Below the pieces are notes generated by a model. The model saw only the letters and a program-made list of their open reading frames with translations, made no database searches and was not told the origin of the DNA. Positions 1-45,000 of a DNA stretch of 64,000 nucleotides are shown here, one piece after another. Positions within the stretch are counted from its first letter, which is position 1; each line of letters begins with the position of its first letter. Position numbers and translations under genes: made by a program. Origin of the DNA: Candidatus Omnitrophota bacterium (lineage in GTDB: Bacteria > Omnitrophota > Gorgyraeia > Zapsychrales > JANLHA01); assembly GCA_963662715.1 (NCBI GenBank), contig OY759724.1:1178662-1242661 (forward strand). The letters run 5' to 3'.

Positions 1-3000
1 TATTCTCCCTTAAGGATTCGAACAACCTCATATTAATTTCCCGGTCTTCGAAGAATTTAAAACTGTGCAGCATATAAATGATGTAGATATCCGGGACCAT
101 GGCGGCGGCAAATTCTCTCTTTTCGATAAATTGTGTGTCCCTGGAGCTTATTAATAACGCCCCCAGCCCAGCGGAGAATCCGAACCTGAAGAAATAACGT
201 CTGGACATCTCTGCCTTCCGCGGCATATCGAGAATGGCAGAGAAGGCGCTTCTCTGCTCCGTTGTTCGAGTTTCTTTCTCTTCTTTCACCGGACTGGATG
301 AAGATGACGGACGGGCCTGTTCCGGCCAGATCGGCTGGTCGTTATAATCCCGCACCAACCGGATCGTTGACTGCGCCAGCCGGTAATAAATAGAGTCCGC
401 GGCAAAGACACTGCCCAGTTTAGGCATTTCGGACCCGGTGTAGGCAGAATATTTTTTATTCATCGGCTTAAGCTTTGTCTTCACCGCAGCCTGATAAAGC
501 CGGCTGTCTGCCGACGATCCCTGTAAAATGCTTTCCACATCAATCAGAATCACGACAGCGTTTATAAGATTATGGATATTCTGCATAGCCGCATCGCGGG
601 CCGGATTAACGATATACCAAATATGCAGCAGGAGGCCGATGGCGCCATCCCTGATTTCTCCCTCTCCCCGGCCTAAGATGACGCGCAACAAGAACGGTAA
701 AGCAGCGAACAGATTCTTTCTCAATTCTTCAGAATGCCGAATGTTCTCGATTCTTCTGCCTTGCTGCCAATCTGACAAGCCGGCAAGGTCGGCGAAGTAT
801 TGGCGCATGGTCCCGACTTTTTCTTGCCAGGCAGCGCCTTCTATCTGTTCCAGGCGGTCGGCTACACCCAGTAATTCTGCGCGGGCAGCCTCTGATTGCT
901 TTTCGACTTGATCCTTCAATGCCCGAGCCGCAATAAGTTCGGAAGAGTCCTCCGGCTGACCTTCCCGATCTTGCTCCGGCATTTGAGCCGGCTCAACTGT
1001 CGGAACAACCTCTGTTGTTTCAGGAGAAAGGGCCTGTTCACTCACAAACAATTCTGGAATCTTTAAGGCCACCGTATGATATACGGCTTTGACATTGTTT
1101 TCTGTGCGGTGTTGCATTTGCAGGTGTTCGGCCGGATAGCCGGCGGCATTCAACCCGATCATCATCAACTCGGCTGTCATATCATCTGAATTAAAGTAAA
1201 AAGCTTCTTTTAAAGCCGCGCGGGCTTCTTTACGCAGCCGGGAAATTGTTTCTTTAACTTTCGGTACGGCTCTCTTGCTTTCGTGGTAACGCGCTAAAGT
1301 TCGCTTTTCTTCTGCTTCAATCAGCTCTAATGCTTGAATAACCGAATCAAAACTCTCGTTAAACGCACGATCCAAAGCATCGAGCCATTCCACAAGGACT
1401 TTTAGCGTCCGGCTGCGAACGAATAATTTTCTGAGCAATGCTGTGTTCGCAAATACTTTAATCTTTCTGTAAGTCTTTAAGGTCTTCACACAATGTTTGT
1501 GAATAGAAAACATCGGTTTCTGAACAGTCCGGTTACCAGACCGGTAACGTTCGATTTCAACGTTCATCATCAAGGATTCGGTGGAAATTCGATCTCCGCG
1601 GAGCCTGGCCTGCAGAATAACGGAATGACTGAGAATCAGAATGGAGTCCTCTTCCGCTAATCTATCTCTCAATAAGGCCGCGAAAGACTCCGGAGACCAG
1701 GTTTCGAAGGTATGAACATGTACGATAACACAATCAACATGACCGGCCGTATCGTCTGCGGTGAATTCATCTGCCTGATCATAGGATATGACTTCTGCTT
1801 GTCCCCACAGCATTTTCTGTAGCTGCCAAACCGCTGCCCGGGAATATCCGATCGTTGCGATAACAGGTTTCCCGGCCGTCTCTTTATCAAGCAGATGCCG
1901 CATATAAACATTAGCAAATTCTTCGGTAAAATCTGGCCCGCTGAAGTACCGGTAGCCGGCTGCGGCCGACCGCTTCGCCGTCACGTCTCCAACAGCGAAT
2001 TCCCGGACAATGATGCCGGTCAAATTAACGGCAGGGTTATGAAGAACGGCTTTTTCGATATAAAGGGCATATTCTTCCCGGGCATAATATGCGCCAAAGG
2101 TTGCTTCCGGAGACTCTATGAATATAACCTGCGGCGGGCCGCGGATGACGCTTTCATGTTTAGCCCCGGCTAAGAAATCCAGCGCTTCCGCCATATGCCA
2201 CCTGGCAAATTTCAAATCATCGCCTTCAGCGGAGCGGGTCAGGAGCGCCACCTTGTATTGACGGACCATTTCTTCTTTTTGCTCCGCGGTGTAATCATCG
2301 CTCTTTCGCACAGGGGAGGAAGTCATTTCTACAAACATCCCGTCCTGAACTTTGTAAAGAATTCTCTGCTTCTGCGGCAGGGACGTCCACAGGCGGCCAA
2401 GCATTGTGAGCTCTTGACGCCCATAGGCCAAAACAAATCCTTGCTCCGTCATCATCATGGCCCGTAACCCGGCCCCCTGCACCAAAATAATCTGCGTGGG
2501 GAATCCTCGTCTTCGGCTGAAATGGACAAGGATGTTTTCAATCTCTTCAACCTGTTCCCGCATGCCTTGTTCGTATCCAATGATCAGAACAGGCTTGGCG
2601 TCACCCGCCTGCGTCAACATCTGCATGATGTCTGTAAGACGCTTTCTTTGAACATCATAATAATTGTACGGCCTTCTTCCGGCCCAGTTCTTCCGGTCAG
2701 AGTCCGCATCTTCCGAAGGAATGACCTCTTCCTGAATGATAAACACCCAGGGATTCTGCTGCCCGTCTCCGCGCACAGCATTGTAATCAACACCGTTGAT
2801 CGTAAACGATCCCGTTGACACCGGCCGGCCCAGATTAACGGCCCCGATTCCAATCTGACGGTCTCTGAGCCATGTCCCGTGGATAATATCTTTTCTGGTC
2901 GGGAATATGATCATATCAGCCCCGGCTTTGATAACACGCAGATATTTACCCTCAACCTGCTCGATCGTGCCGGGCACAGCCGCGCGCACAAACAGTTCAG

Positions 3001-3040
3001 CGTCGGAAATCAGCCCCCGAACGTTATCTTCCTCGCTGAC
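1..3040 (-). other. Further SSP-delimited modules of unknown function; the giant ORF runs on past coordinate 1
   Basis: Stop-free translation, codon-checked at 1076 to 1141 and continuing to position 1. Junction motifs at about 2310 (MTSSPV) and about 289 (SSSSSPV). Confidence 0.5.
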
Positions 3041-6000
3041 CGGAGAAGAGCTGCCGCCGTTTCCTTCCGTTTCCTTTTTGACGATATGCTGATTCACAAA
3101 TTCGGCAAACTTCAAGGACGGCCCGACCATTAACAAGTCGCCGGCCAAATCGATATCGCTTTCCGATAAAGCAATCGCAAACCGTTTCGCCCAGATATCT
3201 TCCCCGGTATCAAGTTCATGGAACGCTATCCGGGCGAATTCAGGCCGCAAGAATTCCTTTAAGTCTTCAAGCTCGGACAACAATTCCCAGCCTTCTTTGA
3301 CGGATTTTCTGTTTAACCTTGGCAAATGACGTTTTTCTAATATTTTCCGCCTGATGTGGACAATGTTCTTGACGGACCGGACACCCCTGCCGGCTTTTGT
3401 CGTCACAAAGATATCCTTGGGCGTCAACGTCTCCGGCGGAATTTCCTGAGGAGCGACTTTTCTTCTCTTTTTGGTCTTCTTAACCGGGAGGTCTAATCCC
3501 TTATCTTTCAGGGCCGTCCTGACAGCAAACTCAATGGCGAATTTCAAGACCTGATACGGCATGGTCGGGCGGTTTCCGTGACGGACGTTCGTGTATTTGC
3601 TCATAACAGGCAGGTATTCATTTGTGACAGGAGCCCATCTCAAGAACCGGTCAATAGCGTATCCCCATGGCGTAACAACGATCTTGCCCATGGCTGTGGC
3701 GGCATGCATCGTATAGGTGTCCGGCGTCACGACGACATCGGCAGAATTGATAAGCTTGTTCAACCCTTCCAGATCATGCTGATATGTTTCCATGATCACA
3801 AGCCGGCTATCCGGGCCCTGCACTCTTCTGTAGGATCCGATCTTTCTGTTTATCTCTGACCAGGCCTCTCCGGCGATGTCATGTTTTCGGGCTGTTTCAC
3901 CGCTGTCAACAAGCACGGCCAACCGTCCCCCGTAACCGAGGATAATTTCCGAAACGATCTTGTTCATCAACCCGTAATGGTAGTCTTTTCGTTCAGTAGA
4001 GCTGAAATAATTAAATAAGACAACCACCCGTTCCGGGTAACTCAGCTTCAGGCCGGAAGTCATTGTGTAACGCACGGGCTGATCCTGTCCGACCAAACCT
4101 GCAACTTCGGCATAATGCCTTTCCTGGGAATACACGTTAAGGATATGCGCATGTTCGTCCTTAACCTTGAACAGTTGCGTCCCGTCAAAGTAAATGATAT
4201 GTTTTCCTAAAAGAAGGCTTTCCGCATTCTCCACGACTTCCACGTCCCGGCGAAGGGTGTACATGACAGACCGCTGTTGACTTCTCTGTATAGCCCGGAG
4301 GACTTCGTGGCTGGATCTTTTGTCAATGAGGAATTGGGCTAAAACCAGATCATACTGCTGCTCTTTGAGATACTTTGTCAACTTGCGGTGATGATAGGAA
4401 TAAACAACTTTTTCCTGATCCGTGATATCAAAAGTGAAAAGATCGATCTCGTCAAAACCAAACACACGGCCGGCCCATTTCGTTTCCCGGCCTTTCCAGA
4501 TGGTCTTCTTGTTCGGGTGAGTCACCACCGTTACTTCTTCAATGTTCGGATGAACCGCCAGGATGTTCATAACGCCGCTTTCAATAAGCTCAACACCATA
4601 ATCCCGTTTGGTCGGGCTTAAAATAAGCACGCGTTTTACGGACGGCATAATATCTTTCAGCGGCTGTTCAATCAGCGGCAGCTGTGACAGCTCCACAGGC
4701 GAAGACGCAGAGAAACTCCGTGCTTCTTCCGTTCCCCGGCCATTTTGTGCCGGGCTGAAAACCGATATTGGGCGATATATTACTTCCTGCTGAGAAGGCT
4801 TGTTGAGGCTGCCGGTAGGCGGGCCGCGGTTGATCACAGAGTATTTTAAGGATTCCTGAACATATTGATGCTCATGCCCTGCGCTAAACATCACGTACAG
4901 ATGTTTGATCAAAGCCCATGCTTGGACGGCTGTATAAGCTACGGCCTTTCCGGCTTTCATAAATGAAAGCCCTGTTTGCAGTGTTACGGCCAAGCCGGAA
5001 GCTCCGCCCTGCGGCAATCCCGAATCCGGTTGTTCCTGACCTTTTCTCAACGGCCAGCTTTGGGTCTTCCCGGCAGCTCCCAACCACAGGCCCGGCATGA
5101 ATACCGGAGCATACGGACCGATACCGACCGGGGAACTGACAGGTTTTTGTAGGGCCGGAGCAGCCTCGACCGGGATGTTCACCGCTTCATGACGAATATC
5201 TTTTGCGCTATCCGTCTTATCCGTCTCCTGCCGTAACACCGGCGAAGATCCGTTATTCGAAGAACCATTTTCAGCAGAACTATTAAAGGTCTCATCCTGC
5301 GCCAAACGAGCGGCGGCCTGCCATTCGGCGTCCATCCAAAAATATTGCGCTTGACGGATATCTATCCCGAAACGGCGGATGAGTTCCGCCTTTGATGCCA
5401 ATGTCAACCAATTAAGATTTAACGGCCCGCCAATTTCTTTCTTAACCAATGACTCCAAGACCAAGGTATAAACATCTTCAGCTTTCATGGGATAGCGGTT
5501 CTCTGTCAGCAGATCCCGGGCCTTGAACTCCAGGATAACAGGGGCAAATTTCTCTTCATCCGGTCTGGCTTGCTCCTCGGTAGACATGAAGGAGTTCATC
5601 TCTTTCAAAGAAAGCGTCGGGCGATAGTCATCATCCGAAACAAATTGTCCGGGAACACGGTTCTGCTGCATAGCCCAGAATTCTGCCGTCCTGCGCTGTC
5701 CGGTGACTGAGTTCTCCCATGGATGGCCGGCCTTGGTTCCGTCACCAGCCAACCACGTGCGGACCAGTCCGGCAAGGGTGCCGTGATAAAGGACCAAATC
5801 TTTTTCCTCACTCACAATGGGGGAAGAACTGCTTTGGGCCGAATTAGCAAGGGTCAACTCAACACCTTCAGCGTTATCTTCTATAGTTTTAGCGGATTCA
5901 AGCGGGCTGGAAGACATAAAATGTTTATTATTCAAGAATGCGCGGATTCCATTCACCTGTTTCTTCTGACCTTCATAGAAGAGGATCAGATCCCTTAAAT

Positions 6001-9000
6001 GATCTTTACGTTTAAAGAAATCAATAGCCTGTCTGCTGTAGAACGCCTCGGCTTCGTCATCGTTCATGGATTCAACTGTCCTGTGCGAGCTTGCCACCCA
6101 TCCCTGATACACCTGAATCATCGACTGCAGCAGGGTTGCTCGCAGGTACTGCTGGTTAAATTTCATGGCAGCGGCATACTTGAACACAAATTGTGTCCAC
6201 AATTCCTGCGGCATCTTGAACCCTTCGAAATGATGTTTGGCCAAAGCCTTCAGTTCGGCAAAAATATCCAGCTCCCCGGGCAGGACTGGCTTCAGAACAT
6301 CCTGGTAAATCTCCCAGTATTCTATATATCGGCCTAACTCCTCAATACCGGCAACATCGCTGACATGAAATTCATTCAGCACGACATTCCGGCGGCTGAG
6401 CTCATCCTGCAACCGACTCATCGCCGTCCTGATTCCCTGTTCGATATCTTCTCTTGCCCCGGAATCTTCTCCCTTTAACGCCTTCATCCTGCCCGCCGCT
6501 TCCTTCACTTCAACAACAAGCTGCTTCACCTTGCCGATATCCTGCGCCTTAGCGGCCACTTCCTCTTCGACCTCCATGACCTTCCGGAAATGCTTCACGT
6601 AAGCCTCGTACTTCGCCAGGGCATTATGCCCTAACACATCGGCTTTCATCTCTTTAACCGCAGGATCATTCAGGGTCAATATCTGCTTAATGGTCTTCAC
6701 CCGCCGCCATTTCTTTCCGTTCTCACTCGCCGTCAAGATCGCAGGTTCGGCCACTTCCTGGAACATCAGCTCCAGGGCGCTTAAAATCTGATCACCCAAC
6801 TGATACACTTTGTCGCTGTCGTTATGCCACTTCGCCCAGAAGTTCGCCTGTAAAATCTTCATCGGCCGGGAAATGCCCAGCGGTCTGAACAGATATCTGT
6901 CAAGTCTCGTATCGCTTCCGGTAGATAACGCAGTCAATGTCCATAAAATGTCTATCTGCCACGCTCCGTTAGTGTATATGCCGATCGGGTCGTACAGGAA
7001 GATACGTCTCATCTCCGGCCCGACCCCGAATTCGCCTCCGATCGGCTGCCCGATATCCACGCCAAACATCTGACTAAACGGCCGGGCGATACTGTGGGTG
7101 ATCGTCGCGTCATATTTGCTCCTTGTATAATACGGGGCAACGAAACTCCGCGGACTCAACACCCAGTCCAGCCACACGAGCGCCCTTAACGGATAAATTT
7201 CTTTTCTGGCCGTCCGGATATATTTCCATAATCCCATACGTTTTCTTACGCCTTTCCAGCCCGTCATTAACGGCCATAGATGATCCCGCACCCAGCCCGG
7301 CTGGATACTGCGCAAATCAGCATCATATGTCGCAAACAAACCGTTCTTTCTGCCTAAGTCCTCCATAACGCCCAGACCCAAATGCAGGCTGAAGCCCTTT
7401 CCTCTGACAACTTCCGGTTTCAGCATCACAAGCACCTTCAAATCTTCCGAAAGCTTGCTTAAGCGTTCTTCATATGTCCTCTCGGCCACTCTCGCCGGAT
7501 GTCCTTCCTGCCAGATAATAGCTTTCAGCACATCCTCCAGCCCGGCACCATCCCTTTCCGCCAGCTCTGCCTCGGCTCTCTGCACAAAATCATCCCAGGC
7601 CGCCAGTGTTTTCACGGAGTAGGCCAGCCCTTCCGGATATCCTCGTCCGGCCACGAGGGATTCCTCCAGAGCCTGCAGTGTCGTCTGCCGGTTTCTTTCC
7701 GTCAATATCGCCCCGCGAGCCTCGGCCACCAGCTGTTTATAAAGCTTCATATAATCCTGCAGGAATTTATATCCAAAACTTCTGGCTACCTGGATTCTGG
7801 CTTCCTTGACGAATTGTTTTCGTTTGGCCTTTTGATCGCTCTCCGAGAGTCCGGTCAGCAGGTGTTCCTGCCCCTGAACGATGTCCTGCACAGCTTCTTC
7901 AAACCTCATTCTTTCTTCAACGACCTTCTTCTTATCCCCTTCACGCGTCACCTCCGGCCAATCGCTCATTAACTTGTCGGTGATGGCAACATATGCTTCT
8001 ACCCCTTTCTTCTCCCAATACTCAAACAGCGTGCCCTCATTCATGTTGCTTTCATGTTCCCCGACAGCCATGACAACCGTTCTTTCCCCTCTTAAATACC
8101 GGTCATGCCCCAGGACAATGGCCTCCAAGACATTATCAATGGTATCCCCTTCACTATAGAACGGAACTGTCACAACAACATCCAGGTCTCCCTCCCACGG
8201 CTGCAGCGCTTCCGGAATTTCTTTATCTATCTTCTTTCTCGCCCAGATTCGATATCCGATAATATCCTGCTCCCGGCTGCCGTTGCCGATGATCCGCAAG
8301 AATTGCGCTTCCAGCACCTCTATTAATTCCTTATACCCGGTTCTTTCGCGTTTTATCTTCTCTGTTTGAATGCCGTTGGCTTTCACCTCAACCTGATAAA
8401 TCTCTGCCAAGGCTTTCAGCTCGGCCACGATCTGCCTTAAAACTCCTGGATATTGAAGTCCGATCTCTCCCGCACCGCTCATCATCAGTTCTTCCGTAAT
8501 AGCCCTGACCCTCTCCCGGTTCGACCTCGTGAACGCCTCCCAGGAATCCCTCTGTTTTGTCAGGTCATAAATGGCTTTCAGATCCCCATATCTCCCGATA
8601 ATCGTTTTATCTTTCTCTGTTGATTGATACCGCCCGAAGAAATCATGCGATAAAGAAGAATCCGTTATCGGGCTGGAAACGTATTGTTTTTTCGCTTCTT
8701 GGAACACGGACAGGACTGCCGGTTCACGGCCCCACGTCTCTTCCACCAAAACATCAACCTGCTTACGGACATTTTCACTGATGCGGAAATAATTATGCGC
8801 GACTCTTTGGTAAAGGGCTTTTCTGCTCTGGCCTTTCTTTTGATTTCTTTCAATGAAAGGTTTAATGGTCGTCCCGAAGAATGCGGCCGAATCGGCGTCC
8901 GAGAGAACTCTCAGATCTTCATAATAAGGCTCTTCTGCGGAAACAGCGCCCAGGATAATCTGTCCTTTGAATAGAACGGCATGAACCCCGGCGTCATGAT

Positions 9001-12000
9001 GTCTGATCAGAAACGCCACCTTGGCTCTCTCCTGTTCCGTGAAGATGCCTAACTGCTCGAGAAGTTTATCAACAATGCGGGCGCTGTTAAGCGGATGTGA
9101 CACTTTCTTTCTGATATTTTCATCAAAAGGCGCTTTAAGTTTTTGGACTTTCAATCCCGGCAGATAACGTTCAATGTCATGCCCCATAGCTGCTATCTGC
9201 AAACTGAGATCAGCTTGCGGCTTGATTTTCCTCGCCCATTCTAAGACTTCATCGAAATGACGGAAATCGGTCTGCGCTGTATACTCGTCTTCCGGATCGA
9301 TTTCCCGGTATATCCGCAGGATGAGTTCGCGGATATAACCAAACCGTTTTTCAGATTCAGAAGCGCTTGAGATCCGGTCCCGCTTTATCGCCTTTTGGAT
9401 TTCTGTTACGATCCCGCGGACTTTTTCCGGCAAGAGAACCGGTCTCGTGCTGACGAGTTGTATTTGCCGCTCAGCCTCAAGCATAGCATCCCGGTCTTCC
9501 GTTTCTTTTTCCTGCACCGGCGATGATGAATCTCGTTCCGTGGCATCTAAGATAACCTGCGCTACTGAAAGCAGGTTGGATTGTGCCGTTTTATCTTCTA
9601 TCGCGTTTTCCTTGAAGAACTGAACAACGTGCGGACTGGTGAGTTTGACCTTTTCCGTTAAATGATAACTTCGGAACGAATAGTAAGTAAGATAATCTTG
9701 GATTTCCTGACGGATATCATCATCACTGGCTGTCTGCTGGCGTATCTGGGCAACCATGTTCCGGGCTAATTGTATTTCGTCCTGAATCGGGGAAGAAGGA
9801 TCACGTGGGCTTTGCTTCCTGTCCCTTTCCTGCCATTCATAGAAGGTAACATGATTGATGCCCCAGTTGTTCAGGTAGCGCAACACACGCTGCCGCGGGG
9901 CATGCGTCCGGACCTGCAGGAGGTCTATCACTTCTTCATACAGTTTCACGTCTCCGCCCTTCACCGCCTCTACCACCAAGTCCCGGTTCTCTTCAAATAT
10001 CTTCCGCTCCTGCTCATTCACGATAACGCTGTCCCTCGCCGGCATCAGTTCTTCCGTCGGCTTCAGATGCCGTTCCACAGCGTTGATCACAGGCTTAAGC
10101 TCCCCTTCCGACACCTCGCTCACTTCCGCCACCGTCAGGGCTGACAGCTGCGCCAATCGCGGAACCGTCACGTTAATCCCTTCCTTCTTCAGCCGGATAT
10201 ACGCCGCTATGATACTCTGGGCTTTCGCCGACAATCCTATCGCGTCCCCGTAATACGCCAGGTCCTTCGCCGTCCTGATCGCCTTCTCTGCCACCAGCTC
10301 CTGCAGCACGTCCGCCTTCCTGATCCTTCTTTCCACCGGGCTCGAGCTCAGGTCCATCCGGGAAACCGGAAGTTCTTCACTCGAGAGTTCGACCATCAGG
10401 TCCCAGAAGTCCGGCATGATCCCTTCATAATCCGGATGGTCTGTCTGCAGCGTCTCATACGCCTCTTCCCCGATCTCCCGGAAATCCTTCATATCCTCCG
10501 CATCCAAACGGTTCACGTCAAACCATCTCTGACCTATGTACCCCCGGCTCTTCACGTCATAGCCCAGGATCCCCGCCAAGGTAATCTTCGCCTCTCGCGC
10601 CTTCTTCTCCCCGCGCGGGTCCGCGTTCCACATCCGGCTCAATAACTCTCCGCTCTCCAGCACGCTCTTCGCGTCCTTCGGCGTCAACAATGTCAGATAC
10701 AACCCTTCATTCCCTTCAAAATATTCATGCAGTTTCCTCGCATACTCCCCTTCCTTCGTCTGCGCCTTCCTCTCCGCTTCCGTGTACGAATAGTGCAGGT
10801 GCACATACCCCAGCTCCTGATTCGCCTGCTGGTTCGCAAACATCTGGTTCGCCACATACAGCGGCGACGGATACGCATGCCGCGGCGTCCCAAACAGCTC
10901 GATGTTGATCGGCGCCCGCAGATACTTCACATCCGCCAGCTTCGGCTCCGGCTTGTAATACACGCTTCGTCTGAACATCGTCTCGATCGGCGTTGTCCGC
11001 ACCTTATCCCACAGCTCCTCATCCGTGATCCCGCCCTCCGGTACATTCAACGCCTTGCGCCAGTACAACGCATTTGTTGGCTCATCATACAGGTAATCCA
11101 CAACACTCCGACCTTCCGGCAGCACCAGCTGATGCGTCGGAATCCAGATATACCGACTCGCACTGCTCCGCTCATCAAACGTGAACCGCACCGATGACTG
11201 CAGCTGCAGCCCCAGCTCTTCCCTGCGCTCTTCTCCGAAACCTCTTTCTTTCAACCCGGCATCCGTATAGGTCTTCAGGCCCGGGAACGCGAACGTCCAG
11301 CCCTTGTACCACCAATCCAGCGGCTTGACATCCATCCCCAGGATATGCGGCATGATAAAATGCGTGAACTGGTCACCCTTCTTTTTGGCGATGATATACG
11401 CCCCGAACTGGATCGATTTGGCAAATCCTTTCACCTTGCGGCTGAACACTTCTTCGATCTCATTGAGCCGGTGCGGCCCGTTCCACGGCCGCGGACTAGT
11501 CTCCCTCTCTTCAAGCGGCGAAGAGCCCGATTCTTCACTGCCTCTTTCGATCTGGCCCTGGCTCTCTGCGGACGTCTGACCTTCTTCTTTCTCTAACAGC
11601 CGCCGTGCTTCTTCACTAATCGTAACGGTATCCGTTAATTTTTCTTCCGAACCGGCCTTGGTTTTCTTCCTGGACGATTTCTGATCCTGCTGCGGCCGGC
11701 GGTTATTCTCAGACTTCACAATTGGATGTATCGGCTCAACTTTACGCTCGACCTTTTTCACCGGGCTGGATGTCGCTGAATAATCCTTGATTTGTTCACT
11801 TCCGTAAGATTGATACTCTTCAAAACTAAGCGGTGAAGAGGACATCACTGTCACAGCCCCAACGTTTGATGAAATCTCTGCTGTCCGGCTTTGTGTTTGC
11901 TTCCAGGCCAAATATTCTTCCGGTGTCAGAGGTGAAGATGAGACCATCGTCACCGCGCCCACCGGAGAAGAGACCTTTTCGGCAGCCTGGGCCTGTTTCC

Positions 12001-36000: not shown

Positions 36001-39000
36001 CATTGACCGGGACAGCCGACATGATGGAAACAGCGCCGCGCGTTGTGCTTTCAAATTTCCGGATTGAGCCGGCCGTGGACCGCGCCTGCTCCGCCAGATA
36101 AGCCCGGTATTCTTCCTCGCTTAACGGTGAGGAAGACATATACGTTAAAGCGCCGACCGGTGAAGAGGTTATCTTAACGGCAGATGTTTCCACGGACTGA
36201 GCCGCTTTCCAGGCTGCATATTCTTCAGCCGTGAGCGGTGAAGAACTCATGAGCGTCGAAGCGCCGACCGGAAAATCTTTTTCCGCGGTTCTTATCACCA
36301 AGTTTGGTTCAATCATCCTTAATGTTGACGGGGACTCATTGACGCGAGATGCGTTCTGTTTCCATTGACCGGCTTTCCGGACGAAAGACTGCTCTAACTC
36401 GGTATATTCTCCGAAGAAGGCCTTAACCATCGCGACAAATTGATTCCAAAGCCTTAACAAGGATTCGAGGAACGAGCCCTCCCGCATGATATCAGCGATA
36501 GAAATAACAACGGTTTCTTTTGTCTCCTCCTCATCTTCCACCGGGACAAATCTCAAAGCCACTTCCGCTTTACCTGTTATGTAAGCTTTTGCCAACGGAA
36601 CTTCTGTGATCGATGAAAGGGACAGTCCCCGTTCAGGGACAGGCCTTGTTAATTCTGTTGTATTCTTTTCCAGCGGGCTGGAAGAATCGTTTCTTTGATT
36701 CCGCTCAATAGAGATAGGATCGTCAAGGCCAAATCTATTGAGCATTTGGGATGCCATACGATCACGATATATAGAATTCTTCTGGGCTCTTCGATGCAAT
36801 TTAAATAACAGGATAAATGTACCCAATAATGCTAATATGCCTGGGATCTCAAACATCAACCTTGTATACTGTCCAGAAAAATCAATCTGCTTCAAATCTA
36901 TATCGTATTCTCGAGCAACTTGCTGTGCTGATTCTTCAACCGTCTTCCCTTCAAAGATATTTCTTATAAATTTCCACCCACTCCCTTCCTCCAACTGCTC
37001 AAACTGAATGGCAATCACGGCCCTTTGATAGCCAGTTTCTCTCGGGGTTCCTTGTAAATCTTCTGAAATAATTCGTAGTAATTGATTATAAATTGACTCG
37101 TCAATACCCAATTCAAAATGCCGCAAATAATCTATAGCATAAACAATTTTGTGTTCCACAAATCCGAGACCTCTTGACAGAGGATACAGATTGTGTGCTG
37201 TCTCATGGGCAACCAAAGCCCTGAAAGCTTGCTCCGAAGGAAGATCTTTCTGTCTTAAGAAACCGATGTGATTGTCATTACCATGCCCGTGCGTCACAAA
37301 ATTCTTTGCTATAGGAGATGTTATCTCATGAACCCTATCCCTTTGCTCTTCAGATAAGTATGGAGCGACCTTGGATATTAACGATCTCTGTTCTTCAACG
37401 ACTATGGCAGCTTCCTCTCTATCAAAACCTCTGGACACGAGTCCTTCCACAGAAGATGATGTGTCATTGGCAAAGGTTCGGGAGAATCCGAACAACACCA
37501 TGACAAACGTTGATATCATCAACAGCGTCTTCAAAACCTTCTTAATACCAGAAGAAGACAGTTCCCGTTCAGGGACAGGCCTTGTTAATTCCTTTAAGGA
37601 ACTGCCGGTGGTAACCGCATCCCCTGTCTCACCCTTTAACGCAGTTACCACCGCATATGTTCCTTGTCCCTTCACCCTTTCGTTGTTTGTTGATGAAAGG
37701 GACAGTCCCTGTTCGGGGACAGTCCCTGTTAATTCTGTTAATTCCTGATTCTCTATCGGACTGGAAGACGCGTCTCCAATGATTTTTCCGAGTAATTTTC
37801 TTGCATACGCAATTGCCTCGTCCTGGTCAATAAATTCAGGGCTGGTCGCAATCGTAATAATGGAAGCTCTTCTAGCGAGCTGAGCAAAATAATCCACCGC
37901 CACATCTTTTTTCTGAGCACTTAATCCTCTTAAGACATCAAGATCGACATCCAGCACGTTAAAGTCAAGTTCAGCCGCGTCAATATTTGCCCCTTCTTTG
38001 ATCTTATATCTTAGTTCGTCACGGACCATCAAATGGGCTTTACGGTTTTCTGCGTTGTACATAAAATGCCATTCCGTGAAGAAGCCATTTTCCATAAGCG
38101 GAGCGATAAAGCCCTCGATTCCCATGACATCCTGTGAGTGTCGGTCAATTGTCGCTAAATCTAAATCGGTCTTATAGAACAAATCTTCCTGAGACTCGCG
38201 GTACCGCCGGGTCATCTCGGCATCGGCGTGAGCGTCGATGTGCAGAATTTTGTTGGCCTTTGCCTTGATACGTCCTTCCTGAAGCATGAGCCACCAGAAG
38301 GAATAAGCATAATTATGATAATCCATCACCATCACAACACGGTTATCCGGCAGGGTCATAACCACCTTATTTTTCATGCCAATCGTTTCGATGTGTTTGG
38401 CCGGCAAGTTCGGATCTTTCGGACTGCGGTAAATATCCGGCTGAACATCATCGAGGGTGCCGTTAAAGACCCATCCTTCCGCCTGCCATTTCTGGTCCAC
38501 CGGGCTGGAAGATGCTTCCGGTGCTGCCGGCTTCAGGCTTCCTTCAGGTGTGAAGCTGAATTCTGCCGGAATGAAATCAATATCCTTACGGTTCAGATCG
38601 ACCCGGGAAGCATACCGGGCAGCAAAAGACTCCTGCGTCAGGCTCCACAATTCAACCAGTTCCGGATTCGTCCGGAAGAACTCCGGACCGTTAAAGATCA
38701 CTTCTCCCCGGTTGTTATAAAGAATGGCTTTTTCCAGCTTGGAGCGGGATATCGATATCTGTCCTTTGTACATCCTGACGATCTCCGGCTTATCAAAATA
38801 CACATGGTAGAATTCTTTTCTGATATACTCTTCAATCGTGTTTCTGCCGCCCCGGATGACTTTGGCCGGGATCTTGTTATATTCATCCGTAAAGACAACA
38901 TACTTGGTGTTTTCCTGGCCGTCGGCAAGGTTAATAATGACGTCCTTGGCAAAGAGGAACCCGAATCTGTCCTGTGATGACAATTGTTTGAGCCCTCTCA

Positions 39001-42000
39001 GCGCAAGCCCTTCCGGCATGCCTTTCGTCTGCACCAGGACTTTAAATCCGAGGTTCGTTGCAATATCATGCTCGGCCCAGTCGGAAAGATGGACCAGATC
39101 TTCATCGAGATTCCACAGCCAGTCTCGCTGATACGTGAAGCCTAAGGAATCCAGGCCATGCTGTTCTCCGTGCCGGGCCACATCATAGAAGTTCACCATG
39201 GCGGTTATATTAACCTGGCCTGCCTGCGCATAAATATCCTCTATCGGCAGATGCTCCTCTTTTCCGCTCCAAACTGAATATTCCCGGCCTTCGATATTTT
39301 CTTCAACTTTCCCGCCGTAATCGATAGTGACCACAAACCCTCTCTTCAATGACCTTGATATGATCTGCTGCCATGCCTCAATAGCCGGCTGGACAAAAAC
39401 TTCGGTTCCTTCCGGCAGAGTAACGCCCAAACGGTCCACGTAATCTTCGAGTTGTCTGCTGGACAGTTCGCCGATTTCATCCCGATAAGTGCCGTCCTGC
39501 TCAACCGTGTAGATTTCTTTAAATTCTCCCTCAACGGCTTTCAGCCGATGACCCGGCAGGTCATCGATCAACTCGTTGGACAGGAACACGCCTTCGATAT
39601 CGTGAAGATCTTCTTCGGTGACATCAAGCACGGACTTCTCAATCCAGCGGACTTTACCGGCGAATTCGGCTAATTTTTCTCGCTGATTTGTCCTTAAGTT
39701 AGAACTGAATTCCACAATGACATATTCCAGAGCCTGGAATAACTGCGGCTGATATTCCTTGAGATAGCTCATGATATTCAAGGCATATGTTCCGTTCCCG
39801 GCACCCATCTCCACAACGCTGAACTTGGCCGGCCGGCCCATCTTGTTCCACATTTCGCTAAGCTGATACCCTGTAGAATATCCGAAATATTTCGCTGTTT
39901 TGCGGTCTTCAACATAGGTGTCAAAATCTTTTCCGCGTCCGATCTGCGCGATCCGGCCGTAATATTCTGTCTGGGCCTGCGACATAAACTCGGCAAATGT
40001 TTTTCTGTTCTCAATCGGTGAAGAAGATTTCTTGCCGGAACCTCGATTGCCTTTTAATGTCTTGACCGCGACCATGGATCCGGGGATCCTTTTTTCCAGA
40101 GCGTCGACAATCGTCTGATTCTGGCCTACCGGGGTGAGCACCTTAATCTTCCACTCCGTAAAGCCGTCTTCGATCTCCCGGCTCTCGATCTCTTTGATGG
40201 ACATATTCATCTCGGCGATCCGCTCAGAAACGAGACTTTCCATGCCCGGCCACGGCTCGGTCACAATCGTAATCAGGCGCGGGATCGTCGGCATAGCCTT
40301 AGCGCCCTTAACCTTGAGGATGGCCTGCACATCGTCCTTCATTCCGTTAATCTCTTCAGCCGGGATATCCATATCGATCACCAGGTTATCCCCTTCCACT
40401 TTCTGTTCATGAACGTTGCCGAGATGCTGCGTGATGACCGCCACGATATCTTTAAGCAGACCGATACGGTCATACGGCAGATGCAGGGTCATCTTGCCAT
40501 AGGTCTCTTTTGCCTTGCCTTTTTCGTAATACACGTCAACGACATCAAATTTGACATGTCCTTCTTTAAAGTCCAATTTGGCCAATTTAACATTATCATT
40601 ACCGACAAGCTGGAAGAACTCATCCTGTTCTTCCAGGAGGCCCCAGCGGAGGTACAGGCTGCGCACAAGACCAGCGTTCTGCAAACCTAAGCCTAAGGCC
40701 GACAGGGAATCCCGTCCTTTTTGCGCGGCATTGAAATCAAATTTCTCCAGCAGAAGCACTGTTCTTAGATTCATAGCGTTACGCAGGATAAAGCGGCGGT
40801 TTCTCTCCAGATAACTTCTGCTGTCTCCCGGTTTACCCGGACGGACCGGAGTCAGCGGATTAATGCCAACAATATCCCCGTTCTGCAGCTCATACTTCTC
40901 GCTTCTTATTTGACGGCCCCTGATTTCATAGGCGTCAAAATCATTGCGGATTCTTAAAGTTTCAACCCCTAAATATTCGTCATCCAGTTTATGAATATCT
41001 TTTCTGGCAGCGATGTCCGCCGGGATACTGCCTTTCTTGAGTCTCAAAGTCTTGAAAGAATATTCGTGTCTGCCTTTACGGGTCGGCGGTTCATGGACCT
41101 GGACATAAACCCAGTCGCGAATGGATTCCAGCAAGCGTTCAAAATCAGCATCAAAGTCACCGGCGATATCAACCTGGCGGAAATTAAATTCCTGGTTAGG
41201 ATACATTTCAACCATCTTGTAGAACCAGTGGGCCGCTTTGTTCCCGAAGCGCATAAGATTCAGGTTCGTCTCGTTCATAATCTTAATCTCAAGCGGCACG
41301 CCCTTGACCTTTGTCCATGATTTTGCCGGCAGCATAAGGCCCATATGCAGACTGTCATAACGGTCGAATTTCGCAATCATGCGGTGCTTGGTCCGTTTAG
41401 GAATGATGCTTCCGATGTCGACAAAAATTTCATCGCTATATTCATCAATAAGCGTCAAGGCCTCCCAATAATCCTGGATCTCCCCTTTCACGACCACATG
41501 CAAACCTAACAGGTCATAGAGAGGATCATCCTTGGCCTTCCTCTCCTGCCGTTCGAATTTCTCCGCGATAGAGTAAACGCTCTTGACGCGGGAGCTCATC
41601 GAGAACTTCACTCCGCTTTCTCCAAAAATCTCTTTCAGCCGTTGCTGGAGCTTTCTCTTAACCTCCAGCAACGTCCCCCTGGCTTCTTCATACGTCATGC
41701 CGAGCAGTTCCTCTTCGATCTTCCGCTTCATCTGAACATATTCCTGAGGATGGGCGACCATATAAATTTCATTACGCAGCATGGAGGAGAGATCATCCCG
41801 GCCGAGACGTTCGGCTAACGGTGCGAAAACGTCTTCAACGACCTCTTCAAAATATTTCAATTGTTCCTGCGCCGCCTTATCAATTTTCCTGCCCCGGAAC
41901 TTCTGAATGGTGCTGTAAACTTCCTTGAAGATCTGCGACATGCCCTTAGCGGAACCGGCCAACTGGACGATCATCTCCATATAATTCTGAATGGAGTCGC

Positions 42001-45000
42001 CGCGCTGATACACAGGGATGTCGGTAATGCTCGGGACCCGCGCTAAGCCCTTCTTCACCGCCTTCTTCTTGATCGGCGAAGAGGAATGTTGCTCTCCATA
42101 GAATTCATCCAAAGTTATCATCCTGTCTGTCGGAACCTGTGCCGGCCGCCAGGCCACAATGACAGGAGTCATGATCCCCGGAGTCGTCGGCAGGTAGCCC
42201 CGCAATTCTTCAAAGACGCGTATTTCGGTCAAGCCTATACTGCGCAGATAATCTTTGTAGCGCTGATAACTGGAGACCGCCATGTCATCGTGTTGGATGC
42301 GGACAAAAACCATGGCCGGGCCTTTGACCGGAAGCAGTTCGGGCAACGACCTCTTGATCTCATCAAACACACCTTCGGCAAAGAACGGCTCATTCAAAGT
42401 GATGACGTTGAATTGATGCCGCAATTCTTTCTCAAAACCGGCCTCTTGAGCTGACAGGCCATAAAATTCCGCCTCTCCCTCGTCCGGACTGGTCAACGGG
42501 TCAATGCCGGTCACTCTCTTCAACAGCTCCATAGCTTTGCTGCTGGCGGCTATGGTATTGGCAAACGCATTATCACCCGCTCCGATATCAAGGAGGGCGG
42601 CATCTTTTCCAACATATTGTTCGATCAACCTTAAGAACGTTGTGTCTCCTTGGGTCCACTCTTCGCCGCTTAACCGGGCCTCAGCAAGAACCCCTTGCAT
42701 CCTCTGATCAAAACTTGCGTTCCCTGAGGAGCGGTTGAGCATCGGAGAACTGACAGCGCCCGTTTGAGTTTCACTAGAAGCAATAGAATCGTCTCCTGAA
42801 GCAATTTTTGCTTCAATTGTCCGGGTCATCGTTTCAACAAAATATTCATTCATATCCAACGGAGTTGAGCTCATCAACGTGGAAGCGCCGACGCTGCTCT
42901 TGACAACTGACTTGATACTGCTGCTGACGGTATCGGCTTCTTTGCTTGCCAGGTAAGCCGCATATTCTTCGGCGCTTAACGGCGCAGAGCTCATTAACGT
43001 GGAAGCGCCGACGGTACTCTTCGCTGCTTCCTTGATACTGCTGCTGACGGTATCGGCTTCTTTGCTCGCCAGGTAAGCCGCATATTCTTCGGCGCTTAAT
43101 GGCGAAGAGCTCATTAACGTGGAAGCGCCAACCGATGTTTTTCTCTCAACCGGCTGAACCTGGACTTCATCAATCAATCGTAAGCTGCTTCCCTGGGCCA
43201 CCCGGGCAGCCGGGGTAACAACCTTGGTGTAGACATGGCTCAGAGCCCCGAACGCTCTCATAAGGAACCTCACCAGGAAGTCCAACAAGAACCTCAACAG
43301 CATGGCCATTCTCTTCATCAGGGATGCCATGGTGATATAAATCACTTCCTTTTGCTCAACTGTTTCATCGACAGCCGGGAAGACCAGGCTTATCTCGGCA
43401 TTATCCCGAACCGCGTCTTTTCTGCCCGGGACAATGATCAGGGCTTTCTGCCAGGCAGCAAGGCCTTCATAGGCACGGCGGCCGGCTGAGAGAAGACCGG
43501 TTTCCACCACGTGGCTCTGATGAGAAGAAACCGGCGAAGAAACTTCTTCCAGGACCGGGGAAGAAGAAGCCTTAGGAGCAACCTTGTAAGGTGTGAGCGT
43601 CCAGATAACAGCATTAATTCTTTCCTCATTACCATAAACTAATTTCAGCAATTCTTTTTCTTCATCCGTGAAGCTGATCTTTCCGGCTAATTCTTTGATT
43701 AGAGCATCCCTTTTCTTTGCGCTGGTTTCGGCGGCCGTCGCAATAATTTCCTCTAAATCCTGGGCCAAGGCAGCTGAATTCTCTTTGATCTTCTTCTCAA
43801 TCAAGGCAAGCGCCTCTTCCTTCTTGGCTGCCAGGAAGGCTTCTGTCAGAGCCTTCTCCAACATCTTTTTGGCCTCCTCTTCATCATTACCGTTTAGATC
43901 CTCTAAGGCAGTTCTCAATTCTGCGCTTAAGCGGTTCTGCCAGATATCGTCCTTCTTTTCCGCGATATCTGATTGATTCTCAATCTTCGCTTTTCTCAAC
44001 AATTCATCCGCATCCAATAATTTCTCTACGGCTTTCTCCTGCTCATCTTTATTCTGCTTCTCCATTTCCCCGTACAATGCTTGTCTGGCCTTAGCTCTGT
44101 CATTATCGCGGGTATCTTCCAAAGCTGCCCGGAAGGTCTTCGGAGATTTATACCAGACATCCTCTGTGACTACGTCCGTGACACCGCCCTTGGCTTTCCG
44201 GACTCCACGGAATTTATCCAAAAGACGCTTTAATAATTTCTCCGCCATCTTTTTCAACCCTGTTTTCTTGTTGTCCAGAACTGTTTTCTGTTGATCCTTT
44301 TGGGCTTTATCAATGTCAGCAAACAGCTTTTCTTTGAATTTATCCACATTGTTTTCACTCACATCCAGCAGGGCCTGTCTCAGTTCACGATCCAAATCAA
44401 AGACTTCCAACACTGTCCTGCTGACAAATTCTTTCTTAAGCTGGGAAATTTTGTCTCCTTTTTCCGTCTTTGCTATTCTTGCCCGGGTTTCGCGCAGAGC
44501 TTCAACAACCTCCGGATTTCGGCTGATGGCTTTGATATATCCGTCATAGTTCTTATCTTCTATGACCTTTTGAGCAGCCTCTTCGGCTTTCTTCTTAATC
44601 TGCCCGAAGAGTTTTTCTGCGGCCTTCTGGTGAGTTACGTTGCTCAACTCTCTACGAACCTGGGATAACAGTATCTCCGAAATGCTCTCGACATATGAAT
44701 CCGAACTGACAAACAGTCTGTCAACGCTTTTCAGTAATGCATCTTCCATGCAACCGTCCTTGGCCTTTTCAAAAATCCCTTCTATTTCTGCCAACAATTT
44801 ATATTCTTCAGAATCTCTGTCAACGGAATCAAAGGCCTTTCGGATAACAGCAATAAATTCATCCGCTGTCGTTCTGGCTTCCATGTATTCGAGTAGTATC
44901 GTAATATTACTGAATAACTGTTCTTTAACCGTGCCGGCATAAATCGGCCCAAATTTAATTCTAATCTGCCTTAACCATTCTTCTCTCTTATTGGTTTCTA

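Follow-up and report, generated by a model that had tools for sequence, protein, structure and literature searches.

A Ser-Ser-Pro-aliphatic motif at enzyme-unit boundaries of a giant Omnitrophota protein: a conserved marker that may show where the chain is cut or recognised

Layout of the giant open reading frame

We analysed a 64,000-nucleotide stretch from a Candidatus Omnitrophota bacterium (assembly GCA_963662715.1, contig OY759724.1, positions 1,178,662 to 1,242,661 of the forward strand), hereafter the window, and the giant gene that fills it. A six-frame scan found a single open reading frame (ORF) on the minus strand that contains no stop codon from window position 2 to 64000 (2..64000; 21,333 codons). 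The frame runs off both ends of the window, and the protein length of 21,333 amino acids (aa) is therefore a lower bound. The codon of aa i begins at window position 64000-3(i-1), so that low window coordinates are C-terminal, as the original prediction had it. All features described below lie on the minus strand.

The tetrapeptide Ser-Ser-Pro-[Val/Ile/Leu] (SSP[VIL]) divides the frame into two parts. By motif scan, the N-terminal part, aa 1-6812 (43565..64000), is free of the motif. It contains SLT and M23 wall hydrolase domains, a long unannotated stretch, and a GT48 glucan-synthase-like domain with multiple transmembrane (TM) segments. The C-terminal part, aa 6813-21333 (14,521 aa; 2..43564), is a chain of enzyme units with [S/V/T/A]-S-S-P-[V/I/L] separators. 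The original prediction had placed the motif in the C-terminal 15,000 aa and had given the motif-free N-terminal part as 4,300 aa; the C-terminal location was right, the length of 15,000 aa was not, and the motif-free stretch within the window is actually 6,812 aa.

Frequency and composition of the motif

A regular-expression search of the translation found 56 SSP[VIL] matches plus one SSPM (aa 7084), which bears out the predicted number of at least 50. All of them are within aa 6813-21235; the first lies at aa 6813 (window 43564), the last at aa 21235 (window 298), and none in aa 1-6812. The expected number was 0.61 for independent, identically distributed residues, and 2000 residue shuffles, a check proposed together with the prediction, gave a mean of 0.60 and a maximum of 5. 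The enrichment is about 90-fold over an expectation of 0.6, so that the claim of enrichment stands with a larger factor than the roughly 50-fold over about one occurrence that had been estimated. No other 4-mer of the whole protein is as common as SSPV (35 against 0.2 expected), and the motif-free part, aa 1-6812, has no enriched k-mer.

The motif is strict. Val, Ile, Leu, or Met follows SSP in 57 of 57 cases, and Ser precedes SP[VIL] in 56 of 60. The residue at -1 is Ser in 27 sites, Val in 13, Thr in 6, Ala in 6, Gly in 3, Ile in 1, and Pro in 1, and information is limited to the five positions [S/V/T/A/G]-S-S-P-[V/I/L]. Further downstream, Glu is the commonest residue at +4, +6, and +7, a weak preference (13/57). 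The sites are spaced by a median of 215 aa (range 8-1283 aa), and for the 35 gaps that reach 150 aa or more the median is 281 aa; these values correct the spacing of roughly 250 to 1,200 aa given earlier. All six Ser codons are used for the motif serines, together with several Val, Ile, and Leu codons. Six orthologous sites of a relative (L001, described below) have the same residues with other codons, including switches between TCN and AGY. Because the Ser codons vary between sites and between orthologs, selection acts at the level of the protein and not of DNA or RNA.

Several trivial sources of the motif were considered and rejected. Chance or composition is ruled out by the shuffles. Some 8 sites stem from recent duplication (a 1.68-kb duplicate and tandem arrays of 213 and 96 nucleotides (nt)), and about 49 independent clusters are left when they are removed, which excludes a repeat artefact. 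A DNA-level signal such as a restriction or recombination site or an RNA element does not agree with the codon diversity at the sites and in orthologs, and tRNA and Rfam searches of the window gave no matches. Internal translation starts after the motifs were also rejected, since Met is not enriched there and a Shine-Dalgarno sequence with ATG within 40 codons was found at 1 of 40 isolated sites against 0.76 at random.

Motif sites and enzyme units along the chain

At least 15 different Pfam families tile the chain, each present once or twice and none dominant by copy number. Domain calls came from Pfam, NCBIfam, and PDB-sequence searches, the last of which annotated three units only. The sites, taken from the regular expression on the translation, are given by the position of their first residue.

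The first site is SSPV at aa 6813 (43553..43564), which is conserved in three relatives (P0015, L001, and L014). It is followed by SSPV at aa 6821 (43529..43540), whose ortholog site in L001 has different codons, SSPL at aa 6965 (43097..43108) in a repeated peptide beginning VGAST, and the SSPM at aa 7084 (42740..42751), whose L001 ortholog is SSPV. SSPI at aa 7307 (42071..42082), which like SSPI at aa 8746 (37754..37765) was part of the four-way alignment and the L001 codon comparison, opens a unit of 686 aa (7307-7993). This unit has a RelA_SpoT synthetase domain (Pfam; aa 7470-7596, 41213..41593) and, close to its C-terminal end, an ACT-like match below threshold; no motif interrupts it. 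SSPI at aa 7993 (40013..40024) and SSPV at aa 8498 (38498..38509) are the N- and C-terminal edges of an NDUFAF7/Methyltransf_28-type methyltransferase unit, which was recognised by Pfam, homology, and an AlphaFold2 model (confident fold aa 7997-8493, 38522..40012). The next unit, 8498-8746, carries a UPF0489/peptide-arginase-like domain (Pfam; aa 8556-8652, 38045..38335). In unit 8746-9107 (36680..37765), an all-alpha domain with an invariant HETAH...E signature lies between TM-like helices at aa 8819 and 9048, which were seen by hydropathy only. This unit is a candidate zinc peptidase of a zincin-like kind. Its assignment as eCIS_core was rejected because the Pfam match of this HExxH unit (E 0.14) is not significant. 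Five sites follow closely: SSPL at aa 9107 (36671..36682), SSPL at aa 9253 (36233..36244) and aa 9290 (36122..36133), both in VGAST repeats, and SSPV at aa 9279 (36155..36166) and aa 9351 (35939..35950).

A unit of 1283 aa contains a phosphoribosyltransferase (PRTase) domain (aa 9962-10061, 33818..34117) and weak HAD-like hydrolase matches (aa 10208-10413, 32762..33379; under both curated cutoffs), with no motif between them. SSPV at aa 10634 (32090..32101) and SSPI at aa 10915 (31247..31258), the latter being the exact 5' edge of the first copy of the 1.68-kb duplicate, enclose a NUDIX unit (10634-10915) with its domain at aa 10714-10857 (31430..31861). SSPV at aa 11308 (30068..30079), SSPV at aa 11492 (29516..29527), SSPI at aa 11570 (29282..29293), and SSPV at aa 11778 (28658..28669) lead to a unit between SSPV at aa 12000 (27992..28003) and SSPV at aa 12630 (26102..26113). 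This unit (12000-12630) has a GT4/GT1 glycosyltransferase domain of the mannosylglucosylglycerate synthase-like type (aa 12294-12498, 26507..27121). After SSPV at aa 12888 (25328..25339), aa 13165 (24497..24508), and aa 13357 (23921..23932), there is a weak Radical_SAM match at aa 13398-13437 (23690..23809; 26.5 bits against a cutoff of 29.5), inside which a CxxxCxxC string lies at aa 13404-13411. A full-length Kdo transferase KdtA/WaaA (aa 13856-14282, 21155..22435; unit 13789-14307), whose match spans profile positions 14-421 of 425, stands between SSPV at aa 13789 (22625..22636) and SSPI at aa 14307 (21071..21082). SSPV at aa 14567 (20291..20302) precedes a HATPase_c domain (aa 14840-14977, 19070..19483), and SSPV at aa 14990 (19022..19033) lies 13 aa past its end. 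Weaker hydrophobic peaks at aa 11763 and 13899 (hydropathy only) fall within soluble units.

In the following region, SSPI at aa 15219 (18335..18346), SSPV at aa 15548 (17348..17359), SSPI at aa 16168 (15488..15499), and SSPI at aa 16494 (14510..14521) are near edges of internal paralogs, and SSPV at aa 15779 (16655..16666) lies between the second and third of these. SSPV at aa 16734 (13790..13801), aa 16805 (13577..13588), and aa 16876 (13364..13375) belong to units 1, 2, and 3 of a 71-aa tandem array, and SSPI at aa 16929 (13205..13216) comes next. SSPV at aa 17118 (12638..12649) is a paralog edge. The 32-aa units of another tandem array contribute SSPV at aa 17280 (12152..12163), aa 17312 (12056..12067), and aa 17344 (11960..11971), and VGAST repeats contribute SSPL at aa 17355 (11927..11938) and aa 17388 (11828..11839). 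Then come SSPV at aa 17411 (11759..11770), SSPL at aa 17493 (11513..11524), which is the exact 5' edge of the second duplicate copy, SSPV at aa 17886 (10334..10345) inside that copy, and SSPI at aa 18069 (9785..9796). The unit 18159-18442, between SSPV at aa 18159 (9515..9526) and SSPI at aa 18442 (8666..8677), has a weak HD/DUF4202-like match below the Pfam cutoffs (aa 18240-18411, 8768..9283). The C-terminal end of the window contains SSPL at aa 19364 (5900..5911), SSPI at aa 19392 (5816..5827), SSPV at aa 19585 (5237..5248), aa 19622 (5126..5137), and aa 19766 (4694..4705), a Glyco_transf_9 (heptosyltransferase-like) stretch at aa 20076-20135 (3596..3775), and SSPV at aa 20318 (3038..3049), aa 20561 (2309..2320), and aa 21235 (287..298), the last site in the window.

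The motif at unit boundaries, duplications, and repeats

The position of the motif relative to folds was examined in several ways. Around 40 isolated sites, the background hydrophobic content of 0.34 drops to 0.13-0.22, and it does so only within the stretch from about -8 to +11. Because this dip is so confined, the motif lies in short hydrophilic linkers. None of the 57 sites falls inside the 13 domain envelopes, which cover 2,213 of the 14,521 aa. By chance, such an outcome has a probability of about 8e-5, or 3e-4 when clusters are counted. The methyltransferase unit gives the most precise edges. Homology to stand-alone proteins covers aa 7999-8489 (some alignments extend to 8508) between the motifs at aa 7993 and 8498, so that it begins 2-5 aa past one motif and stops about 9 aa short of the next. 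AlphaFold2, run on aa 7960-8790, gives a confident methyltransferase fold at model residues 38-534, and the two motifs, at model residues 34-37 and 539-542, have a predicted local distance difference test score (pLDDT) below 50 at its extreme edges. The fold begins 1 residue past the end of SSPI (aa 7993-7996) and ends 5 residues before SSPV at aa 8498. The unit after the methyltransferase had no alignment depth and no resolved fold in this model. The distance from a motif to the first domain element is variable (2-90 aa), and the folds of the units are unrelated.

The envelopes and the AlphaFold2 edges agree with the earlier claim that the motif falls at domain boundaries. The claim that modules are bounded by the motif holds for whole proteins and not for every fold. 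Multi-domain enzymes have no internal motif, which supports the view that the motif separates whole-protein units.

Duplicated blocks begin or end at the motif, as had been predicted. The 1.68-kb duplicate has its first copy at aa 10915 to about 11476 (29573..31258) and its second at aa 17493 to about 18054 (9839..11524). The DNA changes from random to near-identical exactly at the SSP codons (TCT TCG CCG), and the similarity fades about 15 aa before the next motif. Internal paralogs behave in the same way. The pair at aa 10915-11496 and 17493-18073 (up to 99.7% identity) has offsets from the motif of 0 and +4, and the pair at aa 6821-7069 and 17118-17391 begins at a motif in both members (offset 0). 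The other pairs are aa 9098-9354 and 17109-17347, aa 15202-15552 and 16154-16498, and aa 11491-11580 and 17410-17503. The two copies of the 1.68-kb direct duplicate are about 20 kb apart and differ by only about 20 nucleotides; they could reflect a very recent duplication or gene conversion, and collapse or expansion in the assembly is also possible.

Three tandem arrays with periods of 96, 120, and 213 nt have one motif per unit in each. The 120-nt (40-aa) array at 42867..43129 repeats the peptide VGASTLMSS[STA]PL-x-EEY. The 96-nt (32-aa) array SSPVGASTMMSSTPLTQEEYTAWKQAQAAEEV (11898..12253) has 3.7 copies, and the 213-nt (71-aa) array (13256..13820) has 2.7 copies with 98% DNA identity. The 71-aa unit has one SSPV near its start, followed by TNNERVKGQGTY. 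Single related copies of this unit (SSPV-AGAGTNNERVKGQGTYTVAAVLLKGETGDAV..., aa ~16720-16930) occur at aa 8770-8800 of the window protein and at aa 560-700 of the relative P0019. The VGAST peptide is a separate repeat, and 5 of the 8 SSPL sites are within it. Its other copies have Thr or Ala at the second Ser (SSTPL, SSAPL), and some copies in relatives vary the first as well (SAAPL, SATPL). The peptide, about 25 aa in full ((P)VGASTLMSS[STA]PL[ST]xEEYxA[YW]K), occurs in tandem with 2-5 copies in three places of the window (42821-43132, 36086-36268, and 11786-12250; aa 6957-7060, 9245-9305, and 17251-17405) and in all close relatives, always as the C-terminal element of a paralogous unit about 250 aa long.

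The motif in relatives and other junction codes

The closest homologs are partial proteins of Candidatus Omnitrophota metagenome-assembled genomes (MAGs) with 65-74% identity. A search with aa 8746-9360 against 1.84 billion representatives gave only 8 matches, so the clade is rare. The submitter's label on one relative's contig is 'uncultured Planctomycetales'.

It had been proposed to look for the motif in homologous giant genes, and it is present in L001, L014, P0001, P0002, P0023, L017, and L025; the same pattern was found in P0015, P0019, P0021, and P0022. L001, a single open frame of 4,169 aa, forms the end of a contig of 348 kb and is colinear with window aa 6807-8769 at about 60% identity. 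Each of its seven SSP[VIL] motifs has an equivalent site in the window, and no motif occurs in its first 2,034 aa. Two conserved junctions can enclose non-homologous units, as L001 2292-2632 and window aa 7084-7307 show. In a four-way alignment of the window protein, L001, P0001, and P0002, the linkers are variable and rich in indels, and the motif alone is kept. Past the junction at aa 8498, the units of P0001 and P0002 differ from those of the window and L001.

L014 (ENA ERZ25039459 contig_38025, 1-23438) has a different gene arrangement. Its motif-free part is a separate gene of 11,609 aa that ends in a stop codon, and the motif-rich part is distributed over same-strand downstream genes of 276, 1633, 675, and 1973 aa with 2, 5, 6, and 9 motifs. 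Unrelated genes after them have no motif. An M48 unit (Pfam) in L014 is bounded by motifs, and a phmmer search with --max found no counterpart of it in the window. What are separate genes of the L014 type is one fused frame in the window. Two of the L014 genes share 16 nt within a VGAV...SSSP element, an overlap that could reflect a frameshift or a fault in the assembly.

Further relatives also use the motif. P0023 (4,597 aa), one of the 8 matches to aa 8746-9360, has 16 motifs against 0.21 expected, and every Pfam domain lies between motif sites. Units that are bounded by motifs and uninterrupted in relatives include a two-domain PRPP (phosphoribosyl pyrophosphate) synthetase in P0023, a GT5+GT1 starch synthase in P0019, and a GGDEF domain. 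L017 and L025 are from more distant lineages with only 36-37% identity in the methyltransferase, and the motif is still in use. L017 is a complete protein of 3,502 aa with a signal-like N-terminus and 8 motifs. The neighbouring EF-G and UvrD genes of the L017 and L025 lineages have none.

As judged from these comparisons, [S/V/T/A]-S-S-P-[V/I/L] is shown to be a protein-level, selectively maintained, lineage-specific marker of boundaries between self-contained enzyme units. The marker is confined to the part after the membrane domain or, in a relative, to genes downstream of that part, and relatives of very different sizes use it alike. The original prediction of a dedicated inter-module marker accords with the envelopes, the homology limits, the AlphaFold2 model, the duplicates, and the conservation in relatives.

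Some homologs do not have the motif, and other strings occur at their junctions. In Ca. Zapsychrus exili (L002; JAVCCJ010000109.1, ORF 269-6157), D-x-A-M-[MVL] occurs five times (aa 376, 398, 919, 1497, and 1719) against 0.035 expected, and these sites account for all five AM dipeptides. The string flanks the equivalent methyltransferase unit and lies outside all Pfam domains, and one copy aligns with an SSPV of L017 past an N-terminal domain that the two proteins share. In P0011, PALAKTxxTPMPV flanks the methyltransferase on both sides (aa ~385 and ~745). The strings of L002 and P0011 suggest that each lineage has a junction code of its own. An obvious code is not universal, however, since no recurring junction word was found in L007, a homologous ORF of 3,202 aa.

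The composition and N-termini of family members have further features. The window protein has only 15 Cys in 21,333 aa, three of which belong to the CxxxCxxC string. In relatives (L001, L014, P0001, P0002, P0015, and P0019-P0023) Cys is 0-0.6%, near zero in most, and in ordinary ORFs on other Omnitrophota contigs it is about 1-1.5%. The depletion could relate to export, to unfolding, or to keeping the Cys residues of so large a chain from mis-pairing. Five stand-alone Methyltransf_28 proteins from other Omnitrophota (P0004, P0005, P0006, P0008, and P0010) have signal-peptide-like N-termini (e.g., ...SAFA|LG), followed in four of the five (not in P0004) by a conserved C-L-[SA]-P-x-[ILV]-[QK] string. 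Such N-termini, odd for an S-adenosylmethionine (SAM)-dependent NDUFAF7-like methyltransferase, hint at export of these stand-alone enzymes.

Interpretation of the motif

Sequence tools do not separate the functions that the original prediction had listed (cleavage, O-glycosylation or phosphorylation, and docking). Because the motif is strict in linkers that otherwise drift freely, we infer a sequence-specific reader. An endopeptidase is ranked first as this reader, and the motif would then be an endoproteolytic processing site of a cellular polyprotein, a reading that we hold tentatively and at less than an even chance. The ranking is based on the units being complete, with one site per boundary and none within units, on a code that differs by lineage as in viral polyproteins, and on the stubs of 11-110 aa that follow terminal motifs in relatives. 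Virus lineages with different proteases have different cleavage codes. In the proposed mechanism, the C-terminal 14,500 or more aa would be made as one chain that is tethered to the membrane through the GT48-like multi-TM domain. Cleavage at about 50 SSP[VIL] sites would then release the individual enzymes. These would include the RelA/SpoT-type synthetase, the NDUFAF7-like methyltransferase, NUDIX, PRTase, glycosyltransferases, KdtA, an ATPase, possibly a radical SAM enzyme (a weak match), and others. The protease may be one of the units, with the TM-flanked HETAH...E unit (aa 8746-9107) as a candidate, or it may be encoded by a separate gene outside the window. The fuller proposal, in which SSP[VIL] is the cleavage code of a membrane-tethered chain of dozens of enzymes with a dedicated protease and other lineages have other codes (D-x-A-M-[MVL] in Ca. 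Zapsychrus), is possible but somewhat less probable again.

Several points weigh against cleavage. The proposal rests wholly on sequence, and no known peptidase specificity for S-S-P-aliphatic could be named. The chain of L014 is already split into genes, yet these retain internal motifs, so gene splitting has not replaced the motif. Some linkers of P0001 are very short, at about 7 residues. The motifs 11-110 aa ahead of stop codons in relatives, with no unit after them, fit a recognition tag equally well as trimming. The protease leads (the HETAH unit and the M48 unit of L014) are weak and have no link to the motif.

The chain could act in the cytoplasm of the bacterium itself, or it could be meant for delivery into a host or prey cell. 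The cofactors (ATP, GTP, SAM, PRPP, and CMP-Kdo, and Fe-S if the radical SAM enzyme is real) and the housekeeping enzyme KdtA point to the cytoplasmic face. Export or delivery to another cell would fit the Cys depletion and the signal-peptide-like N-termini of the stand-alone and 3,502-aa relatives.

Linkers that stay uncut and carry a modification sequon are the alternative to which we give the most weight, although we consider it unlikely. The serines before Pro would be phosphorylated by a proline-directed kinase or O-glycosylated, for regulation or protease protection, in a tethered string of enzymes. In favour of it, the Ser-Ser-Pro core lies in exposed, disorder-prone linkers, and protease-resistant glycosylated Ser/Thr/Pro linkers are well known in secreted multi-domain enzymes. 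The Cys depletion and the signal-peptide-like N-termini of relatives suggest that some family members are exported. A 2026 preprint sees this class as membrane-anchored cytoplasmic multi-enzyme proteins and makes no appeal to cleavage (bioRxiv 10.64898/2026.06.07.730766). However, each linker has exactly one strictly ordered copy and no compositional run, and constraint on the aliphatic residue that follows Pro is no weaker than on the serines. If the motif were a general sequon, exposed loops within units should have it too, whereas it is at unit boundaries only, and it is absent from the 6,812-aa N-terminal part with its many domains and presumably exposed linkers. No kinase or glycosyltransferase is linked to the motif. 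Less probable than the sequon, and rather doubtful in our view, is a short linear docking site for a chaperone, a secretion or translocation component, or a scaffold, e.g., for holding the units during synthesis or export. A short, exposed, strictly conserved, and lineage-specific motif that occurs like a tag shortly ahead of C-termini in relatives would suit such a site, and the related repeat VGASTLMSS[STA]PL-x-EEY resembles a binding element. A candidate binding domain was not found, though, and one tag per boundary with none elsewhere is more simply explained by processing.

The remaining two alternatives are both improbable. The motif may be a functionless by-product of unit joining, left by microhomology in illegitimate recombination or copied as a linker together with a cassette. 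Shuffling at the motif does occur, since the 1.68-kb duplicate starts exactly at the TCT TCG CCG codons, and relatives have exchanged units at motif sites. The codons, however, differ between sites and orthologs (TCN/AGY switches) while the amino acids are fixed, and the motif is kept across lineages at 36-60% identity with flanks that are fully diverged and contain indels; neutral scars would have decayed. We therefore consider this footprint very unlikely. Least probable of all is a structural element in which Ser is the N-cap and Pro the first residue of the helix that opens each unit. Here S-P-x-E resembles a capping box with Glu favoured at +4, +6, and +7, and the AlphaFold2 model begins a short helix at the Pro of the first motif. 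But the Glu preference is weak (13/57), pLDDT is low at the motif, and the unit folds are unrelated and begin 2-90 aa away. Capping needs no uniform tetrapeptide, and the replacement by D-x-A-M-[MVL] elsewhere would be left unexplained.

Comparison with known systems

Giant genes of 10,000 to more than 100,000 codons are common in Omnitrophota. The gene in the window is a member of the giant multi-enzyme class of this phylum, which has been described as 'multi-enzyme metabolic cluster' proteins (bioRxiv 10.64898/2026.06.07.730766). It shares with the class an ORF of more than 10,000 aa, TM anchors, many enzyme families, and homologs in Omnitrophota MAGs, and the families in common are methyltransferase, HATPase_c, HD, NUDIX, GT1, radical SAM, and HAD. 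Published work on such giant proteins suspected cleavage but stated that the cleavage points were not known, and this missing information blocked in-silico cutting of the proteins (West-Roberts et al., 2023; bioRxiv 10.1101/2023.11.21.568195). Neither of these two preprints contains a junction motif, a linker grammar, or cleavage points. The searchable literature on Omnitrophota giant proteins describes no linker motif of such kind, in agreement with the original prediction. The gene does not belong to the Archaeovorins, since the full 21,333 aa gave no dockerin or TSP3 matches (PF00404, PF18884) when scanned with Pfam.

By its possible mode of working, the gene would most resemble polyproteins with consensus junction sites. 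Viral polyproteins, such as those cut by picornavirus 3C or coronavirus Mpro, have a short consensus at the junctions of complete proteins and lineage-specific codes. The window protein is like them in its four to five informative positions at unit boundaries, its codes that differ by lineage, and its candidate protease units within the chain. It differs in being a cellular bacterial gene with a chain 5-10 times longer than any viral polyprotein, and cleavage here is only proposed. MARTX and large clostridial toxins are multi-effector, self-processing proteins with an internal C80 cysteine protease that cuts after Leu and with RTX-type repeats. They are similar in having a very long chain, a membrane-interacting part, unrelated enzyme modules, and short linkers with a shared residue pattern. 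The gene is not a member of this group, because Pfam gave no match for Peptidase_C80 in the chain or for glycine-rich RTX-like repeats, and no fitting tandem repeat is present in the window. It is also unlike these toxins in its S-S-P-aliphatic motif, its roughly 50 units against 3-5, and its KdtA and heptosyltransferase-like units, which look housekeeping.

Two other bacterial systems are instructive. The gingipain/adhesin polyproteins RgpA, Kgp, and HagA of Porphyromonas gingivalis are processed at Arg/Lys between domains. They provide a bacterial precedent of a long precursor that is cut at a simple recurring inter-module site by the system's own protease, but the site, the protease class, the scale, and the modules differ (adhesins there, metabolic and regulatory enzymes here). 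The PT linkers of cellulases are Ser/Thr/Pro-rich, often O-glycosylated, compositional, variable in length, and poorly conserved. Such linkers of secreted enzymes also have Ser and Pro in exposed positions between catalytic modules, whereas here each linker has one fixed-order tetrapeptide that is invariant among orthologs, with hydrophilic flanks that are not Ser/Pro-rich.

The finding is robust, unexplained, and testable with existing metaproteomes. A motif at nearly every unit boundary allows an objective division of giant proteins for structure prediction and annotation. Its roughly 50 defined positions can be searched in existing metaproteomes for chain ends or modifications, and the reader enzyme might be traced through protease, kinase, or glycosyltransferase families that co-vary with motif use across the new complete genomes. 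The conserved marker may point to the places of cutting or recognition in giant proteins. With cleavage, a cellular organism would be using a polyprotein strategy on an unprecedented scale, and if the cleavage code is true, bacterial giant proteins would have their first concrete cut points and could be divided in silico into working parts. Without cleavage, the motif still marks recognition machinery that is dedicated to making or handling enzyme chains of megadalton size.

The motif-free N-terminal part

The motif-free part begins with an SLT lytic transglycosylase domain at aa 46-151 (63548..63865; Pfam PF01464, E 6.5e-17), followed by a Peptidase_M23-like stretch at aa 455-546 (62363..62638; 23.6 bits, below the Pfam cutoff of 28.7). 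About 4,000 aa between the end of the SLT/M23 region and the TM cluster have no annotation in Pfam, NCBIfam, or PDB-sequence searches. Within this region, a search of 5.8 billion protein clusters with aa 1001-2000 (window 58001-61000) found no homolog at E <= 1e-5. The N-terminal part of the window protein also shows no alignment with the first 2,034 aa of L001. On these comparisons, the motif-free region is either very fast-evolving or exchanged between relatives.

Hydropathy shows about 13-15 hydrophobic TM-like segments at aa 4386-6100 (45701..50845), and the Glucan_synthase (GT48) domain is within this cluster at aa 5386-5731 (PF02364, E 3e-70). One Omnitrophota fragment matches the GT48-like membrane domain (aa 4679-6030, window 45911-49966) at 74% identity, and the other best matches are eukaryotic FKS-type proteins with 29-32% identity. 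A bacterial GT48 domain inside a giant protein is unusual.

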